Shown: one piece after another, positions 4,719-16,293 of the stretch
How positions within the stretch are numbered: the first letter of the stretch is position 1
Layout: each line of letters starts with the position of its first letter
DNA from: an uncultured cyanobacterium
Lineage (GTDB): Bacteria; Cyanobacteriota; Cyanobacteriia; Cyanobacteriales; Microcystaceae
Assembly (NCBI GenBank): GCA_963807635.1
Contig: CAWEDJ010000058.1
Location: 1 to 16,898 of the forward strand
Reading direction: 5' to 3'
Length of the DNA stretch: 16,898 bases
Position numbers and translations under genes: made by a program
Notes under the pieces: generated by a model
Database searches by the model: none
Told to the model about the DNA's origin: nothing
The model's input: the letters and a program-made list of their open reading frames with translations, nothing else

Positions 4719-4782
4719 TTTTAACTGGAAAAAGCGATCGCCTATCAAAGATAAATTGTATAACCAAAGAACTGTTGAAATA

Positions 4783-6319
4783 ATGTTAAATAAACGCTCT
4801 AGTGGAATTTTATTACATCCGACTTCCCTCCCCAACCGTTTTGGTATAGGAGATTTGGGGGATGTGGCCTATCGGTTTATTGATTTTTTATCGTCTAGTA
4901 ATCAAAGTATTTGGCAAATTCTACCCTTAGGGGCCGACGGGTTACGGTGATTCTCCCTATCTTTGCTATTCTTCTTTAGCGGTTAATCCCTTACTCATTA
5001 GTCCCGAAAAATTGGTAGAAGAGGGATTATTAGAAACCTATGATTTAGATAATATTCCTGCGTTTCCCTTGGATACTGTTGACTTTGAAGCAGTTAGGCA
5101 ATTTAAAGTTCCCCTATTTAAAAAAGCCTGCGATAATTTTCAAAAAAAATTCCTTAAAACTTTAACAGTTGATTTTCATAAATTTTGTCAAGTTCAAGGT
5201 TATTGGTTAGAAGATTATGCCCTCTTCATGGCTCTCAAAGAATTCCATGCAGGCAGCAGTTGGAATAGTTGGGAAACCGATCTCGTTAAACGAAAACCAG
5301 AGGTTTTAGCGGCTTGGAAAGAACGTCTCAAAGAAACGATTTTCTATCATCAATTCTTACAATTTATCGTTTTTCGTCAGTGGGCTGCACTTAAAATCTA
5401 CGCTAACGACCAAGATATTTACATTTTTGGGGATATTCCCATTTATGTTGCCCATGATAGTTCCGATGTCTGGGCTAATCCTGATATTTTTTGCCTCAAT
5501 GAAGAAACGGGGAATGCGGCCCTCATGGCGGGGGTTCCTCCTGATTATTTTAGTGAAACAGGTCAACTGTGGGGAAATCCTGTTTATAACTGGGAAAAAT
5601 TAGCAGAAACGGATTTTGCTTGGTGGATACAACGATTTAAGGCAACTTTGCAGTATGTTGATATTGTCCGCATTGACCATTTTCGAGGATTTGATGCCTT
5701 TTGGGGCGTTGTTGAAGGAGAAAAAACTGCCATCAATGGAGAATGGGTTGATGCTCCTGGTCGTGCTTTTTTAACCACTCTTAAGGAGAATTTGGGGGAA
5801 AATTTACCGATTGTGGCGGAGGATTTGGGCGTAATTACTCCTGGTGTCGAAGCTCTGCGGGATGATTTTGGTTTTCCTGGGATGAAAATTCTGCATTTTG
5901 CCTTTGATTCAGACCGAGCTAATTCTTTTTTACCGTTTAATTATACGAATCGTAATGCGGTGGTTTATACGGGAACCCACGACAACGATACAACGGTCGG
6001 TTGGTTTCAAGCGCGATCGCCCGAAGAACAAAAACGAGTCACCGATTATTTAGGCTGTGTTTGTGAGCAAGGCATCCATTGGTCTTTAATTCGATTAGCA
6101 ATGGGATCTGTCGCCAATCTCGCCATTTTCCCCCTACAGGATATTTTAGGGTTGGGTAATGAGTCTCGCATGAACCTACCAGGCACAGCCGATGGCAATT
6201 GGGGCTGGCGTTACCGAGAAGACTCTCTAAACAGTTGGATGAAGGAACATTTGGGATGGCTAACTGAACTCTATGGTCGTCGGGTTTATCATCCCCCCAA
6301 AGCTGAGGAGCGGGAATAA
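4783..6319 (+). CDS. malQ: 4-alpha-glucanotransferase (amylomaltase, GH77); one +1 frame break at 4930-4933
   Basis: RSSGILLHPTSLP, WQILPL then GPTGYGDSPY after removing one G, GVPPDYFSETGQLWGNP, RIDHFRGF, AEDLG, YTGTHDNDT. Joins track ORFs 4756-4950 and 5012-6319. Confidence 0.95.
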
Positions 6320-6347: not shown

Positions 6348-8166
6348 TTACCAAGGATCGACAATGGATTTGAAGGGAGCGATGACTGTGTCTTCCTTGC
6401 CTTCATTTTCGTCATCGGGTAATAAAAATTCTTCGATCGCCAGTTCAGATTTCAGATCCGCAACAGTAGAATTTGCAGGCTTGGGAGTCACAGAGGGCGA
6501 TCGCGGAGTAACTTCTTTTTTAAAAGCCCCCCATTTTTCGGGATTAGCAAACTCTTCATAAAGCTGAGTATCGCTAATCAAAGTAACTTCTGAGAGATCA
6601 ATCTCTGCATCATCAAGAGCCATAAGCGGCAGGGTTTGAGGAGAAAAGTCATCGCTTTCATCAATAAACTCCTCGTTTAACTCAGGAGCCGTTGCCGTCA
6701 TCAATTTTTTGAATTCCACAAAAGCCTTATTGACATCCGCTAGGGATTTTTCTAAATCCGTTAATCGTTTTTGAAAGTCAGGCGATAAAGTTGCAACAGG
6801 CTGAACTTGACCGAGGGAAAATAGAGCATCGGGAAAGACACGGAAAAATTCCTCTAGGGTTGTTTCTCCTGCCAACACTTGGTCTAGAGCATCGTTAATG
6901 AGGGTTTTCATTCCCTGGGCGAGGACAACTTCCCTCAATTTTTCAGGCTCAGTATTCTGGGCAATAACAGAACGCAGACTAGGGTTAATCGTCAGGACTT
7001 CATAAACTCCCACTTGCCCGTGATAGCCCGCCCCATTACATTGACGACATAATCGGCCTTTCAGTCGATATTGCTGAATTAATTCCTGGTTGAGGGTATT
7101 GGCTCGATAAAAATGACTCGATTGACGTTGACGGGGAGAAAGTTGTAATTGCTGTAATTCTTCCTTTTCGGGTTGATGCACCAAGCGACAAGTCGGACAA
7201 ACGCGGCGGAGTAATCGTTGGTTAATAATGCCACTCAGATTTTCTGCTAAAAAGGACGGTTTTACCCACTCGCTTAATTGCGCGATCGCCGAAACCGCAT
7301 CTTGGGCAGAGAGACTGGTCAACACCAAATGCCCCTGATTAACGGAGTCCAGAACAGCCTGAGCCGTCTCCCAATCCTCCATTTGATCCACCAGGATCAC
7401 ATCCACATCTTGACGAGCTAAAGAGTCTCAGGGCCTGAGCATAGGTAAAACCGTGATCTCGGTCAACTTCCACTTGAGTAATGCCAGGAAGGGTTCGACG
7501 AATCGGGTCTTCAAGGCTGGCTAAATTACGATCTTTTTGTTGAGCTAGGCAAGCTTCTAGGGTGGTAGAAATTCCAGCATAAGCAGGCCCCGTCACCAGA
7601 ATTAAACCTGATTTACGGTTATTTAGAGCTTTTATCGCGGTTTGACTTGTTTTATCCGAAATGAGTGTCTCTACATCAGCCAGTTCACTCACGGATTCCA
7701 CAATACGAACAACGATCTTTTCCCCATAGAAACTGGGTAGGGTATGAATAAAAAAATAAACAGGATTACCGTTATAACTTTTACGCAGTCGTCCCTTTTG
7801 AGGAATTTTGGTTTGGGTGATATCCAATCCAACCATTGCTTTGAGACGATTAATGATCGGAGTTATCATTTTTTTTGGGAGGGGATCAAGCAGCGATCGC
7901 AAATTCCCCCCCTGACGAATCCGAACAACCAATTTATTTTCTTCTGGCTCAAGATGAAGCTCAGATGCTTTTTCCCGCATTCCCATAATGAGAATTTTAT
8001 TGACCAGCCCGATGATCGGAGCCTCGTCCTGGTCAGGAACACGATTCAAATTTTCCTCGATAGGGCGTTGACCCTCATGAAACGGTGCTTCTTCAAAAAT
8101 TTCCGTCACATCAACAACGGTGGCCTCGACCTCCGCCTTAGAATTCTTGTCAGAGTATTGATTCAC
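6348..8166 (-). CDS. GspE/PilB-family protein with degenerate ATPase motifs (PilB2-like); +1 frame break at ~7421-7430
   Basis: GTG start with GGAGGG RBS. APIIGLVNKIL, ASELHLEP, YGEKIVVRI, LEDP, RQDVDVILVD, GHLVLTSL, QRLLRRVCPTC, CRQCNGAGYHGQVGVYEVL, GMKTL and GETTLEE match the family. Joins track ORFs 7339-8166 and 6348-7406. Confidence 0.88.
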
Positions 8167-9840: not shown

Positions 9841-10380
9841 TTAAACTTCGGGAGGAGGCGGAGTGGGTAATTTGCGGATTTCTGAATAAAACGCGCTATA
9901 ACTAAAGCGATCGCGTTGTTGGATTAGGCTCGTCCGCAAGCGTAAATTGGCACTAGCAAACCACAGCCGTTCCTCGGTATAGACCGTATCAGACTCTAGA
10001 ATGAGCGTTAAACTTTCATCGGCGGCTAAGAGATAGCGTCCTGACAGCATCAAACTGCCTGGTTTGGCGACACTGCGAAATAATTTTCCCGTCAATCCTG
10101 TTTCATTTTCGGGTAAAAACAGCCATAGCGTTGAACCCTTTTGTTTCGTTGCGCCCCAATCTCCGACGGTTTCCCAACTGGTTTTGATTCCTCCCAAGCT
10201 TTGGGCAGAATTGATTTGATAGGCTTGACAGAGAGATTGGAGTTCGGCATCCCCAGGGTTAATTTTCTCCATATTCAGTTCTGACTTTTGATTTTCAGCA
10301 TTATTCTGATCAAAGTCGTAACGGGTACGCTGGGAAAACCATTTTCCTGTACAGGATTCCAAAAAGGCTAGAACTTCCAT
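9841..10380 (-). CDS. cpcU: CpcS/CpeS-family phycobiliprotein lyase, CpcU-like
   Basis: GKWFSQRT, EERLWFASANLRLRTS and SAFYSEIRK define the family. The WETVGDWGATKQKGST segment resembles CpcU rather than CpcS (subfamily call from memory). Confidence 0.8.
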   Translation of the reverse strand: MEVLAFLESCTGKWFSQRTRYDFDQNNAENQKSELNMEKINPGDAELQSLCQAYQINSAQSLGGIKTSWETVGDWGATKQKGSTLWLFLPENETGLTGKLFRSVAKPGSLMLSGRYLLAADESLTLILESDTVYTEERLWFASANLRLRTSLIQQRDRFSYSAFYSEIRKLPTPPPPEV

Positions 10381-10425
10381 GAATAGTTGAAGATTTGCAA
10401 GGGACGAATACTGACAAAATTAATT

Positions 10426-11095
10426 TTAAGTCATTTCGAGTCTTTGTAGAGAGTAAATTGCGGCTTGTCTGACCTGGGGGTGTTCATCTTTCACAAAGAA
10501 ACGGAGGGCGGATAGGCTTTGATCGGAGGGTAAATTGCCCAAGGCTTCGGCTAGACGTTGACGAATTAACCAATCTTCCGAACTGGCAAATTTTAAAATG
10601 GCTTCAACCGTATCGATCGCTTTAATTTCTCCTAATGCTGCGATCGCGGCCTGCTGGACAACGGTTTCTGAGCTATCAAGGGCTTTTAATAAAACTTGTT
10701 TCGACCGAATATCCTGCAAATTACCGAGGGAAACCGCCGCACTAAAGCGCACTAACCATTCCGTATCCTCATAAAAAGCGCGAACAAGGGGTTCTAAGGC
10801 TCGTCCGTCTTTCAAATACCCCAAGGCACCCGCCGCATCGGCCCGAATACCGTAATCAGGGTCAGTTTCTAATAATTTGGTCAAAATAGCGAAGCATTCG
10901 TCGGTCTGTTTAATCCCTAGCGCGAAAACGGCCATGGATCGCACTTGAAGCATTTCATCATCTAGAACTTTTTTGATCAGGGGAACGGCATCTTCATCGG
11001 CAACTTCTCGCAGGGAAACCAAGGCCAACACGGCGATCGCGGGAATTGGTGCTTTCTAGCTGGGTCGCAATTTGTTCGAGGGTGAGTTGACTCAT
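10426..11095 (-). CDS. nblB: HEAT-repeat NblB-like phycobilisome-associated protein; +1 frame break at ~11032
   Basis: True N terminus MSQLTLEQIATQLESTNSRDR from ATG 11095, then one extra base beside HIP1 11033-11040, then LALVSLRE...DYGIRADAAGALGYL...WLVRFSAAVSLGNL...DWLIRQRLAEALGNL. Confidence 0.82.
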
Positions 11096-11206
11096 GGGGG
11101 TTTCTCAACATTTCTTAATATTCTTTCTCATATTGTAACGAGGGAATGGGGGAATTGTATTAATGCTCAGAAATTCGGCGTATTCAGATTTTGGGTAAAA
11201 GTCGCG

Positions 11207-11239
11207 ATCGCCTTTCATCAAGTTACAAAACTCGCGATC
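11207..11239. repeat. 33-bp direct repeat, left copy (HIP1-bounded)
   Basis: ATCGCCTTTCATCAAGTTACAAAACTCGCGATC; 32/33 identical to 11849-11881. It begins inside intact HIP1 11204-11211 and ends in broken GCGATCaa. Confidence 0.95.
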
Positions 11240-11264
11240 AAACTCTATTACTCAATACCTTAAT

Positions 11265-11507
11265 CTATGCCAATTCTAAATGTGTAACTGGAATTTTTTC
11301 CGTTTTTTCAGGGGTTTTTAGTCCAGTTGCTACAGCATGAACAGTATGCAATATTTCAGCAGAATAATAACGATTGCCGCAGTTATTACACACACCAATC
11401 GTCACGTCTTCAAGAATGACAAAACCATCTCTATGTTTGAAGACTTCTCGTTTAATAAGGCGAGGTTGAACCGTTCCTTCACAGTATTCGCATTGATAGC
11501 CGTACAT
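11265..11507 (-). CDS. YgiT-type zinc-finger protein (MqsA N-domain-like antitoxin), 80 aa
   Basis: MYGYQCEYCEG...VILEDVTIGVCNNCGNRYYSAE has two CxxC pairs. ATG 11507 lies 4 nt after the upstream gene's stop; no HTH domain follows. Confidence 0.85.
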   Translation of the reverse strand: MYGYQCEYCEGTVQPRLIKREVFKHRDGFVILEDVTIGVCNNCGNRYYSAEILHTVHAVATGLKTPEKTEKIPVTHLELA

Positions 11508-11511
11508 GGAG

Positions 11512-11807
11512 TTAGCCCTCAAGTTTGGTGATTTCATAAACTGTAATAATCAAATAACGTCCGCTAGTGGCGAAACGCCCAACTACCCCGACGGGAGTTT
11601 GTAGATTAACTGCGGTTCCTGCAACAATGTATTTTGATCCCCTGGGATCATCTTTTTCAATCCGAACAACACGACCGTTTAAAATCGCTGTTTCTACATC
11701 GATGATGGTTAGATAGTCTTCGCCATTTCTTCCATTGCATGGGCTGACATATCGTATTGTTGCAATCGGATTTTTTGACGGATACGATCAATGTCGTTGT
11801 TTGACAC
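11512..11807 (-). CDS. DUF4258-family putative RNase toxin; -1 frame break at ~11722
   Basis: Not in the ORF track. From GTG 11807: MSNNDIDRIRQKIRLQQYDMSAHAMEEM[A]EDYLTIIDVETAILNGRVVRIEKDDPRGSKYIVAG...RYLIITVYEITKLEG*. The SxHA.E.M, D+E.AI.NG and IITVY motifs and the pairing with a YgiT finger are typical of DUF4258. Confidence 0.85.
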
Positions 11808-11813
11808 GAGCTA

Positions 11814-11863
11814 AATTTTGTTACGATTCGGTGATCATAGCAAAATTAATCGCCTTTCATCAA
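11814..11863 (-). promoter_or_regulatory. Putative toxin-antitoxin promoter with overlapping inverted repeat
   Basis: Minus strand TTGATG (11863-11858)-N18-TATGAT (11839-11834) with extended TG. Inverted repeat AATTTTGTTACGAT (11814-11827) / ATCATAGCAAAATT (11834-11847), 12/14. Confidence 0.6.
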
Positions 11864-11881
11864 ATTACAAAACTCGCGATC
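11849..11881. repeat. 33-bp direct repeat, right copy (HIP1-bounded)
   Basis: ATCGCCTTTCATCAAATTACAAAACTCGCGATC. It begins in broken HIP1 (ttaATCGC) and ends inside intact HIP1 11876-11883. Confidence 0.95.
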
Positions 11882-11985
11882 GCGTTGTTGATATTTAAAG
11901 ATGAATAGGGGATCTAGGTCAGTGAAAAGAAATTTTAAGTAATAGAATTAAGATTGTCTAAATTTCACTGTTATCTTCTTGCAAT

Positions 11986-12033
11986 ATGCCGTTAAGTTGG
12001 AATGAAATTAAAAGTCGGGCGATCGCCTTTTAA
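11986..12033 (+). pseudogene. 5' remnant (15 codons) of an MmeI-family type IIL restriction-modification gene
   Basis: ATG CCG TTA AGT TGG AAT GAA ATT AAA AGT CGG GCG ATC GCC TTT TAA = MPLSWNEIKSRAIAF*. This matches the MmeI N terminus as I recall it (MALSWNEIRRKAIEF) at 10/15 and ends 4 nt after HIP1 12019-12026. Confidence 0.75.
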
Positions 12034-12966
12034 CAATTAGAAGAAGAAAGGTTGGCGATCGCCTGGGAAATAAAAGGTAAAATTTGAGGATTACTCGCGT
12101 TTTCCTGCCCTTCCGTAAAAACCGTTAATAAATAGGGTTGTTTGTTGGGAATTTCAATATAGGCCGCATCATGGCGTACCTTACTTGTCCAGCCAGCCTT
12201 TGACCACAATTGAGCATTTTTGGGTAAAACTTCCCCTAAAAAGCCTGTAACCTGATTTTCTTCTCCTGCTTCAGGTTTCGCTACGTTTAAAGACCGTTTT
12301 AATAATTTCATCATTTGTTGCGATCGCACCGAAGAAACCGCCACACCGCCAACAATACTATGCAATAAACGAGCAACCGCATCGGTAGTTAACATATTGC
12401 GATTATCCAGCATTTTTCCCACAAAAGCCCGTTCTCGACCATGGGGCCTTCATTCCAGGGTTTTTGATTCACATTAATTCCGTTTAATTCTTCCCACCCT
12501 AAATTTTGAAAATAACGATTGACTAAATTGCGTTGATGTTTCCAGGTTTCAAAGGGCGCGTCGGGTAATTCGGGGCCGCTGGTTGTTCCCGTCAAAGTAT
12601 CCACAATTAAACTCGTGGCATCATTACTCGAATCCACGATCATATCGGTAATCGCCCGTTCTAATTCGGCAAACTTTCGATCATGTTACCTTCTAGCCAT
12701 TCCGCGATCGCAACGAGATAAAACAATTTGACCAAACTAGCAGGATAAATGCGTTCAAAACTGCGATAACTAGACCCCCGCACTGAATGCTTCCAAAATT
12801 CTTCTGCTGAGATAGCCCCGCCCGTATTGACAATTACTGGCTCATCATAAACGATCCAAGTGAGAGCAATTTGATCCCGTTTTAAACTAGGAAATTCCTG
12901 AAAAGCTGAATCTAAAATCGTCTGGACAGTTTGGTTGAGAGCTTGATCGGGACGGAAAAAAGTCAT
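12030..12966 (-). CDS. Class A beta-lactamase-like serine hydrolase; two -1 frame breaks (~12443, ~12671)
   Basis: YPASLVKLFY (SxxK), DSSNDAT (SxN) and WSKAGWTS (KxG). The three track ORFs join as ...IES[L]AELERAITDMIVDSSND... and ...WNEGP[Y]GRERAFVGKML... Confidence 0.88.
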
Positions 12967-13722: not shown

Positions 13723-15084
13723 TTAGACTAAACTCTCGGTATTGCTCAACAATTCAGAGGGAACATTTACTCGATGGAGATTCGCACCTAATTTACGCAA
13801 TTTTCCTTCAATATCATCGTAGCCCCGATCTAGGTGTTTTAAGCCTTGAATCGTTGTTTTACCCTCCGCCGCTAAACCTGCTACCACTAAGGCCGCAGAA
13901 GCACGGAGATCGGTGGACATGACAGGCGCACCCGATAAGAAAGGAACCCCTTGAACGACAGCCACATTTCCTTTGACTCGGATATTGGCTCCCATGCGTT
14001 GAAGTTCGGCAACGTGTTGTAAACGATTTTCAAACACCGTTTCTGTCACCATGCTGCTACCTTCACTCATGGCCAGCAACGCCATGAATTGAGCCTGCAT
14101 ATCGGTCGGAAAGCCAGGATAGGGCAAGGTTTCAATATCGGCTCCTTTTAGGGCCAGGAATTAAACGAATACGATCAGGGGAATCGATAATCACCTTGGG
14201 CCAATTTCTCGTAATTTTGCGATCGCCGAAGCTAGATGAGCGGGAATCACGGGAAAAAGACTAATTTCAGAGTGGGTAATCGCTCCTGCAACCAAGAAAG
14301 TCGCCGCCTCAACGCGATCGGGCAGAATAGGATAATCCGTCGAGTGCAGGCGTTCTACCCCGCTAATGACAATTGTATTGGTTCCTGCACCCATAATTTT
14401 TGCCCCCATCGAACAGCAAAAATTCGCGAAATCAATAATTTCTGGCTCCTGGGCCGCATTTTCAATAATGGTTTCCCCGTCGGCCAGGGTTGCCGCCATC
14501 ATGATGGTTTCCGTTGCACCGACACTGGGATAATCCAGATAAATTTTGGCTCCTGTCAGACGCTTGCGATTGCCTTTAACACTGGCTTGGACAACCCCAT
14601 GCTCAATGATCACATCCGCTCCCATCGCTTGCAGACCCCGCACATGGAGATCCACAGGCCGCGCCCCGATCGCACAACCCCCAGGAAGAGGTACGCGAGT
14701 TGTTCCTAAACGGGCGAGTAATGGGCCAATCACAAAAAAGCTGGCCCGCAATTGGGAAACCAATTCATAGGGAGCTTGAGATTGACCGATATTTCGAGCA
14801 TCAAAATCGAAAATATCTGCATTCTGCTCTATCTTTACGCCGATAGCCGATAAAATCTGGCTCATGCGGGTGATATCAGCGAGGTTTGGCAAATTCCGTA
14901 GGCGGCAATCATCTGAACAGAGGATCGTTCCTGCCATAATGGCCAGTGCGGAATTTTTTGCCCCGCTAATTCTCACTTCGCCTTTTAGGGTCGAACCGCC
15001 AAAAATTTCAATAACGGGCTGATTTAGATTCTCAGACTCCAAAGTATTTGTAATGGTGTTTGTTTCAATATGAGTAGGTTTTAT
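13723..15084 (-). CDS. murA: UDP-N-acetylglucosamine 1-carboxyvinyltransferase; two frame breaks (~14152, ~14199); start uncertain (TTG 15042 or ATA 15084)
   Basis: [65 protein letters not shown] and HLDRGY. The intervening frame reads [15 protein letters not shown], followed by [12 protein letters not shown]. Confidence 0.97.
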
Positions 15085-15500: not shown

Positions 15501-16293
15501 ATGATTACCAGTTCGCAAAATCCCCTCGTCAAACAAATTCGTAGGCTCCATCGCGCTAAAGGACGACAGGAGCAGAATTTATTATTATTAGAAGGAACAC
15601 ATCTCCTAGAGACGGCTTTGGAGGTGAATTGTTCCTTAGAAACTGTCTGTTATAGTCCTCAATGGCAGGTTAAATATTCCCAACTTTACGAACAAGTTTT
15701 AACGCGATCGCGCCGAGTGGAATGTGTGAGTCCTGAAGTGTTGCAACAATTGGCTACGACGGTGAATCCCGATGGCGTGATTGCAACCATTGACCGAGAT
15801 TTTCAAAATTTAAGCCCGATAAAGTCTCCGAAGTTAGGATTAATCCTCGAAAGAATCCAGATTCAGGCAATTTAGGCACGATTATTCGTTCTGCCGTTGC
15901 GACAGGTGTGGAGGGTCTTTGGACGAGTGAAGATAGTGTGGAGTTGGATAATCCCAAGGTATTGCGGGCTTCTGCGGGAGCCTGGTTTCATTTGCCGAAG
16001 AAATCTAGTCCTGATTTGGAAAAATTAATTCAAGACTATCAAACCCAGGGAATACAGGTAATTGCAACTCAGATGAATGCACCTAAAACCTATTGGGAAA
16101 CGGATTTTAGGCGATGAGTATTATTCTTCTGGGCAATGAAGGGACGGGGTTAAGCGCAGATTTGGCTAACTTAGCGGATGAAACAGTCAGCATTCCTTTG
16201 GCTTCTCGGGTGGAATGTTTCGATATGGCGATCGCAGCGGCTTTGTTGTTGTATGAAGCGCAACGACAAAAGGCTAGTTTGGAAAAACGGTGA
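15501..16293 (+). CDS. TrmH/SpoU-family RNA methyltransferase; two -1 frame breaks (~15860, ~16115)
   Basis: MITSSQNPLVKQIRRLH...LLEG; restored LERIQD(S/P)GNLGTIIRSA, NPKVLRASAG and IILLGNEGTGLS; ends AIAAALLLYEAQRQKASLEKR* at TGA 16291-16293. Confidence 0.92.

Follow-up and report, generated by a model that had tools for sequence, protein, structure and literature searches.

Several described systems come close to the locus considered here. In Neisseria, dRS3/NIME arrays are known in which an abundant short palindrome frames variable intergenic modules of a transformable bacterium, with a phage integrase targeting dRS3, and in Acinetobacter, the pdif sites at which modules are shuffled are 28-bp XerC/XerD sites, often present as inverted pairs on plasmids. 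Closer still is the highly iterated palindrome HIP1 (GCGATCGC), for which the evidence of recombination so far consists of a few laboratory events, namely the smtB deletion (Gupta 1993), recombination of a PCC 7002 plasmid (Akiyama 1998) and excision assays (Robinson 1997), as related in passages of PMC13756078, PMC4390886 and PMC9239245. What HIP1 does has been an open question for three decades, according to the passages that deal with it in PMC5861425 and PMC13756078, and the corresponding section of PMC4390886 finds no evidence for a link between HIP1 and homologous recombination. A homologous, methylated HIP1 is described as increasing integration in PCC 7002 in one portion of 10.1101/2024.09.10.611283. 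Finally, SDR5 (Elhai 2008), a 21-22 nt element tied to HIP1 that interrupts a single HIP1 between its third and fourth bases, is reported from Nostocaceae alone in the parts of PMC5861425 and PMC4390886 devoted to it.

The present analysis concerns the window, a contig of 16,898 nucleotides (C58; CAWEDJ010000058.1) from the 4.0-Mb, 94% complete assembly of an uncultured cyanobacterium of the Microcystaceae (G000; GCA_963807635.1), in which exact HIP1 occurs at 4758 sites, or 1.18 per kb. Between a HEAT-repeat gene and a beta-lactamase-family gene, the window carries a toxin-antitoxin (TA) pair and the stub of an MmeI-type restriction-modification gene, set among short HIP1-bounded repeats that we call units. 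Judged by its alleles, this interval is a small defence-gene hotspot, the alleles differing by whole modules with their edges on HIP1. With little more than even confidence, we lean towards the reading that the interval grows and shrinks by host recombination at HIP1 and 10-40 neighbouring bases, with no integron integrase. It was compared with a genus set of six genomes (G000 to G005, of which G003 is 84% complete), with G014 of a sister genus and, in the unit search, with 89 genomes of the family; contig C59, which duplicates C58:10092-16898 at 98.4% identity, was not counted as independent. Thirteen copies of the unit were aligned and modelled without structure (model R1). The features of the interval are as follows.

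10426-11097, minus strand: HEAT-repeat (PBS lyase/NblB-like) gene, left flank; Pfam HEAT_2/HEAT_PBS, an intact 222-aa open reading frame (ORF) in G004.
11196-11203, plus strand: arm left of unit 1 (TAAAAGTC), similar to the unit family's right arm, which reads AAAACTC ahead of HIP1, and to the MmeI codons at 12009.
11204-11241, plus strand: unit 1, with exact HIP1 at 11204-11211, a 22-nt interior and a worn HIP1 at 11234-11241; 45 bits under R1, whose build set includes it.
11265-11537, minus strand: YgiT-type zinc-finger antitoxin-like gene; TIGR03831, 34 bits, above the cut-off.
11512-11807, minus strand: DUF4258 toxin-like gene; Pfam DUF4258, 98 aa in G004.
11834-11863, minus strand: predicted sigma-70 promoter of the TA pair (TTGATG-18-TG.TATGAT), its −35 box within unit 2.
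11846-11883, plus strand: unit 2, with a worn HIP1 at 11846-11853, a 22-nt interior and exact HIP1 at 11876-11883; 49 bits under R1, whose build set includes it.
11986-12033, plus strand: MmeI-type restriction-modification gene stub of 15 codons (11986-12030), cut 4 nt past an internal HIP1 at 12019-12026.
12009-12062, plus strand: third unit of an earlier reading, where MmeI codons meet the beta-lactamase-like gene's 3′ end; its two HIP1s are both exact and lie 36 bp apart.
12030-12966, minus strand: beta-lactamase-family (serine hydrolase) gene, right flank; Pfam Beta-lactamase2, a 312-aa ORF in G004.

That earlier, sequence-only reading of the window had proposed that defence genes were repeatedly gained and lost here with HIP1 as the crossover point. 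The proposal is supported by four other alleles of the interval, by the unit lying between other cargos elsewhere, and by an enrichment of HIP1 at the ends of TA/defence indels. The alleles are carried by three metagenome contigs and one relative; the metagenome contigs are among the matches listed for four runs from four studies (X2, X3, X4 and X11), whose contigs were placed on the window at 85% likeness. Each break lies within about 7 nt of a HIP1, and one allele is an empty site. In the X2 contig (depth 3.4, short side 51 letters), 11177 is joined to 11869 via 19 other letters, with a single HIP1 and no TA pair. The X3 contig (depth 16.9, compared with 139 for the TA allele) departs from the window at 11215, 4 nt beyond the HIP1 at 11204-11211; its other cargo had no match in 10 genomes, and the first codons of that cargo resemble the MmeI continuation, which is a hint only. 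An X11 contig matches the window only from 12019, the edge of a HIP1, and the relative, G003, diverges exactly at HIP1 12055. Unit 1 is a break site of other alleles among the metagenome contigs. A second X11 contig joins 11883 to 11260, a junction that a circle, a tandem copy or a variant of unit 1 would all fit. X4 carries the arrangement of the window; X3, X2 and X11 carry it at least partly, together with another form. RNA runs contained no more than small shares of the window. The two flanking genes had been taken for a conserved frame, and both are indeed conserved, but among the six genus genomes they are adjacent only in the sister genomes G000 and G004; they have other neighbours in G001, G002 and G005, and the contigs of G003 leave their adjacency undecided.

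The coordinates of the sequence-only reading were correct, and its two 33-mers are real: 11207-11239 and 11849-11881 differ by one mismatch and lie around the DUF4258/YgiT pair. A pair of HIP1 sites per unit, as described there, holds for one member only; each unit has one exact HIP1, and the partner is worn, matching at 6 of 8 positions in unit 1 and at 5 of 8 in unit 2. Outside the C59 duplicate, G000 contains one further copy of the unit, a worn one at C40. The string TAAAAGTC, HIP1 and CTTT at 11196-11215 does recur at 12009-12030 with 2 extra bases. Flanks matching at 12 of 12 positions were seen in 21 of 6871 HIP1 pairs at most 1.2 kb apart, the other 20 of which look like copies of longer repeats; by this count, the match exceeds the usual chance level. 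The claim that all three units are homologous did not survive. Unit 3 scores 11 bits (E 0.02) compared with 45 and 49 for units 1 and 2, and family copies outside the build set of R1 score 16-33 bits. As a third family copy, it was rejected: its left half is MmeI codons 9-15 and its right half the coding end of the beta-lactamase-like gene (12030-12062 is coding), so that it is a coding chimera. The HIP1 at 12055-12062, within the last codons of that gene, is kept in five of five genus relatives. The arm at 11196-11203 is variable between strains; it may be a further MmeI remnant, or it may have been an earlier unit's right arm.

The sequence-only reading drew on one locus; at other loci, too, the unit is found between co-oriented cargos, and these cargos differ. 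In the R1 search, 72 candidates were scored per genome, and matches at E 0.001-0.01 outside the genus were treated as chance. Matches with E <0.001 were found in all six genus genomes and in G014, among the 89 family genomes, the copies of the build set matching by construction. The layout of the unit is HIP1-22 or 31 nt-HIP1 in direct orientation, and many units are partial. At locus L136, four copies are placed among 8 co-oriented ORFs (Uma2, methylase, Uma2, ParE/Phd, a 251-aa gene, DUF2442). In G000, the orthologous site is empty, with a single HIP1; in G004, it holds an ATPase-like gene. The methylase-Uma2-large-gene order is found again at G004:C205, without the ParE/Phd cassette that L136 has between two units, and joined at the right HIP1 of the unit. 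By their flanks, G002:C45 and G005:C67 are one locus, with the DUF4258 pair as cargo in the former versus a lone Phd-like antitoxin in the latter. The DUF4258 cassette is present at 3 unrelated loci and the Phd-like antitoxin cassette at 5, with the unit upstream and a HIP1-like site shortly after the last stop codon. Over 19 unit copies, which belong to related and not independent loci, 16 of 17 genes to the left of a unit and 17 of 19 to the right (16 of 19 counting the MmeI stub) were co-oriented, ORFs of <62 aa, the stub included, being left out of the count. At L034, a unit separates the promoter of the antitoxin cassette from that cassette's 3′ end.

Other roles for the unit were considered and rejected. 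A high-copy mobile repeat does not fit, because the strict pattern was present in only 3 of the 89 family genomes, all in the genus, and on one metagenome contig. A fixed −35 element fits the DUF4258 cassette, but elsewhere the unit lies 35-92 nt from start codons. As for an attC site or a terminator, the units lack R″/R′ boxes and fold weakly (−1.9 to −5.9 kcal/mol), boxes and fold having been examined and no attC covariance model used, and no terminator was predicted at units 1 and 2. A possible second unit family was seen at L251 (G003:C548), where a small coiled-coil-like gene lies between two HIP1-like paired units whose interior is different. At L081, L082 and L090 (Pseudanabaena and an unclassified cyanobacterium) and at L031:8740-8900 and 10055-10170, the TA pair is flanked by tandem HIP1 arrays with a 25-31 bp period and lineage-specific interiors.

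The genome-wide comparison set 1.80 of the 4.6 Mb of G004 (101 pieces, picked by contig number and size) against G000; 114 of 149 candidate gaps were kept (≥250 bp, no Ns), and 200 shifts served as the null. Exact HIP1 was found at most 2 nt from 23 of 228 indel ends (null 6.8), from 16 of 154 replacement ends (null 3.6, null maximum 10) and from 7 of 74 clean-indel ends (null 3.2). When the indels were divided by cargo, 13 of 28 TA/defence indels had a HIP1 at most 8 nt away compared with 1 of 18 others (p=0.003; null 3.5, maximum 8). This test used Pfam-labelled cargo on the G004 side; it excluded three DUF29 events, one DUF7689 event, cargo that had no label and G000-only cargo. The expectation that breakpoints fall on HIP1 more often than a local null predicts was thus borne out genome-wide for TA/defence indels. 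The excess is present for replacements and for TA/defence cargo and borderline for clean indels. Eleven clean indels had a flanking repeat of at least 5 bp; HIP1 lay within the repeat in 6 of 6 of those with at least 20 bp (chance 0.074 each), one of these being a coding repeat of DUF29 paralogues; of the 5 shorter repeats, 1 was HIP1 itself. In 20 regions of G000, mostly chosen for HIP1 ends, we found PIN, GmrSD, PemK, Argonaute, HEPN and SMODS genes, and also ABC transporters and transposases. Three defence hotspots have HIP1 at an edge. G000:C28:1827-5556 holds PemK, Argonaute and PD-(D/E)XK nuclease genes where G004 has an HNH gene, and G000:C105:31676-34293 holds a SMODS gene versus HigB-like/SLATT genes. 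At G000:C40:43146-47292, GmrSD and PemK genes are enclosed by two copies of a paired-HIP1 site of which G004 has one.

The MmeI genes provide a natural control. In 31 MmeI 5′ ends (30 loci and L048), exact HIP1 was present in 6, of which 4 were cut at most 4 nt away, at three distinct junctions, whereas none of the 25 ends with a one-base variant of HIP1 was cut there, although 24 of the 25 come from one genus, so that their independence is overstated. At L338 and L048:6277-6318, an MmeI 5′ end is fused at HIP1 to a thiG-like 3′ part, by HIP1-to-HIP1 duplication or misassembly. The gene in question, which looks like thiG, precedes the MmeI stub in G014.

HIP1 sites are also paired at a preferred distance. 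At spacings of 11-18, 27-34, 44-51 and 130-137 bp, 0, 89, 8 and 37 HIP1 pairs were counted in G000 and 0, 58, 4 and 26 in the G004 pieces (L145-L244). The excess at 27-34 bp is mostly non-coding, and the non-coding interiors are polar, with CTT... at one end and ...AAAAC at the other. As a general trait of the phylum, pairing at ~30 bp was rejected: the 27-34/44-51 ratio was 0.6-2.7 in 24 other genomes (those with ≥10 baseline pairs, of 60 sampled), compared with 11 in G000. Of 61 small indels of 20-39 nt, 9 touch HIP1, compared with 4 of 114 that have other lengths, which hints modestly at the coming and going of single modules. One family of such modules is the unit.

Some further details of the interval concern its genes and their assembly. 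Unit 2 lies at the 5′ end of the TA cassette, and homologous units are found upstream of the same cassette in G002 and G014. The promoter prediction is weak, with 3 sites found versus 2.6 expected in shuffles, and its −10 box recurs in homologous loci. The antitoxin is 98% identical to that of Snowella sp. (L057), the closest titled record among the best 80 of 206 matches. The MmeI stub matches the 5′ end of full-length genes, with Pfam MmeI domains, in G001 and G014; the origin of 11884-11985 was sought and not found. All four genes (HEAT-repeat, YgiT-type, DUF4258 and beta-lactamase-family) are intact in G004. Read errors that split genes were checked within 10400-12900, and, depending on the site, two to four of the 4 metagenome runs correct the assembly indels at 11031, 11721, 12442 and 12670. 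An extra base at 11031, absent from three runs, splits the HEAT-repeat gene; one base is missing at 11721 in the DUF4258 gene, which is intact in G004 and in runs X3 and X4, and this frameshift is probably a read error; the beta-lactamase-family gene is split by two read errors, one at 12442 and one at 12670. In addition, housekeeping genes at window positions 4756-6319, 6348-8166, 13723-15042 and 15501-16293 are broken into overlapping ORFs, probably by more read errors, and at the contig ends of G000, 16 contig pairs have >3 kb in common at 95-100% identity, pointing to redundant or strain-variant copies.

One could envision the following course of events for recombination at HIP1. A cassette would be a HIP1-to-HIP1 module composed of unit, promoter and genes. 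Donor DNA would arrive, probably by natural transformation, which we think likely because ComEC and DprA are present; it would pair through HIP1 and the arms of the unit and be joined there, probably with the help of nicking or protein binding at methylated HIP1. A crossover between two sites of one chromosome would delete a cassette, and where HIP1 lies inside a gene, as in MmeI, the crossover would leave a stub.

The strongest alternative, which we consider possible but doubtful, is that the breaks are passive scars. HIP1 would then simply be the commonest microhomology and the units short repeats of an ordinary kind, between which slippage or RecA recombination would delete or duplicate dispensable genes with no HIP1-specific activity. 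A number of observations weigh against an active role of HIP1, and several of them are what passive scars would leave. All of the breakpoint data are compatible with abundance alone, including the MmeI control, where abundance predicts the same direction. Exact HIP1 is lacking within 2 nt of either end in 91 of the 114 indels, 15 of the 28 TA/defence indels have no HIP1 end, and the count at clean-indel ends equals its null maximum of 7. The flanking repeats are imperfect and of many lengths, the DUF29 coding repeat among them. The cargo labels were not blind, having been given after the distances were known, and alignment ends may drift to a conserved motif. The variability of the interval, which the sequence-only reading expected among strains and metagenomes, is seen in the four other alleles and not between G000 and G004, which have the same content at 95% identity over 2.6 kb; every metagenome allele is a single contig (depth 3.4-16.9), and these are related strains at 85% likeness. 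In a survey of the TA pair across cyanobacteria (79 loci from the best 80 of 206 matches), a HIP1-like site was present within 35 nt of the stop codon in only 7 of the 79 loci, which rules out that the DUF4258/YgiT pair is bounded by HIP1 across the phylum. Excision rates at HIP1 are reportedly similar in E. coli and Synechococcus (Robinson 1997), as a passive role would have it. Active HIP1 targeting and passive microhomology are inseparable by sequence alone. Passive scars do not, however, readily explain the same cassettes with HIP1 edges at unrelated loci (3 loci for the DUF4258 pair, 5 for the Phd-like antitoxin), and they leave unexplained why one unit family precedes unrelated, co-oriented genes and why HIP1 pairs are in excess at 27-34 bp (89, compared with 8 at 44-51 and 37 at 130-137).

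Another scenario is that a dedicated site-specific recombinase recognises the paired-HIP1 unit and moves circular cassettes in the manner of XerCD/pdif. The description of the system as free of recombinase stands only in part: no IntI scored above the TIGR02249 cut-off in any of the six genus genomes, or in G014, but XerC-like tyrosine recombinase genes are present in all six genus genomes, unlinked to the locus, and one of them could be the enzyme. The unit family is conserved and oriented, the X11 join of 11883 to 11260 could be a circle or tandem junction, and the unit of L034, between promoter and 3′ end of one cassette, would suit such an enzyme as well. We nevertheless think this unlikely, given that breaks occur at either HIP1, at single HIP1s and at HIP1s within genes, that the interiors are 22 or 31 nt and many units partial, that no recombinase gene was seen in the arrays read, and that a 22-nt spacer is unlike the 6-8 bp core of tyrosine recombinases.

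A link to integrons is visible outside the genus. Because an automatic attC scan found only 3 of the 79 loci, one of them false, attC-type sites were picked by hand; at 8 loci in other cyanobacteria, an attC-type hairpin comes after the TA pair, compensatory changes being seen in 7 of 12 pairs, and a collapsed attC core follows it in 12 of the 79 loci. A full IntI was found in the genomes of L065 and L081 and not in those of L091, L059 and G014 (5 genomes tested). At L059:2771-2890, the attC-type site shares ~30 identical nt with the one of L065, ends at a HIP1-like spot and gives way to a HIP1 array, which could be one example of a cassette switching from the attC to the HIP1 system. At L306:1500-3942 (Pseudanabaena), a full intI precedes attC-like cassettes, two with HIP1 directly after the stop codon; the cassette genes are presumably a cold-shock protein, a PTS IIA protein and a flavodoxin. 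An eroded integron array (a CALIN, or attC cluster without an integron integrase) built by IntI, its attC sites since decayed, its gaps filled by HIP1 repeats and its order a fossil, would agree with these hairpins, the collapsed cores, the end of the L059 attC where the HIP1 array starts and the full IntI in 2 of 5 genomes, but it is the least probable of the explanations, since the unit lacks attC boxes, folds weakly and travels at the 5′ and not the 3′ end of the cassette, IntI is below the cut-off in the six genus genomes and G014, and alleles still differ among close strains, recent swaps between near-identical IntI-free strains being already suggested.

Returning to recombination at HIP1, a bolder version, which we put forward tentatively and would not bet on, is that the lineage replaced the integron with its own genome-wide palindrome, a HIP1-directed host pathway inserting and removing HIP1-bounded TA/defence modules in arrays. 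Some cassettes would have been taken over from true integrons when a crossover fell on a HIP1-like spot of attC, and the ~30-bp pairing of HIP1 would be the footprint of the pathway. If this is true, then the natural function of HIP1 would be that of an attachment site for a distributed, integrase-free system of defence cassettes.

The natural alleles, the empty and filled sites and the one-base control amount to a direct test of HIP1 in wild genomes. They connect HIP1 with the way anti-phage genes turn over in freshwater cyanobacteria, and from them it can be predicted where such cells accept DNA with very short homology, which is relevant to cyanobacterial engineering. We found no description of HIP1-bounded TA/defence cassette arrays or of ~30-bp HIP1 pairing in the full-text literature, a search that did not cover subscription papers and supplements. 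There is a real chance that the HIP1-bounded cassettes are a system of their own, beyond the known HIP1-mediated recombination.

Compared with SDR5, the interior of the unit lies between two separate HIP1-like sites, is low-copy and is found at cassette edges; no single HIP1 is split by it. The Neisserial dRS3/NIME arrays have another motif and another cargo. In the Acinetobacter pdif/dif modules, as here, host machinery shuffles TA and accessory modules at short sites, and the modules themselves encode no recombinase; here, however, the sites are chromosomal and direct, with a HIP1-22/31 nt-HIP1 layout in which, compared by eye with the dif layout, the 28-bp XerC/XerD arrangement is not seen. 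Integrons and CALINs, as far as the relevant part of PMC4889954 describes them, likewise have small genes, co-oriented head to tail, rich in TA and defence functions and separated by a repeated site. The same TA pair precedes attC-type hairpins in other cyanobacteria, whereas in this genus there is neither IntI nor attC boxes nor a strong hairpin, the site lies 5′ of the gene and overlaps the predicted promoter, and crossover would take place at a genome-wide octamer. Judged by its sequence, the locus works like an integron or a pdif array but lacks defining marks of both. With the known HIP1-mediated recombination it shares crossover at GCGATCGC between direct copies and no known enzyme; the known cases are single laboratory events, whereas here we find natural gains and losses of TA and defence genes, arrays, and a conserved HIP1-bounded unit.

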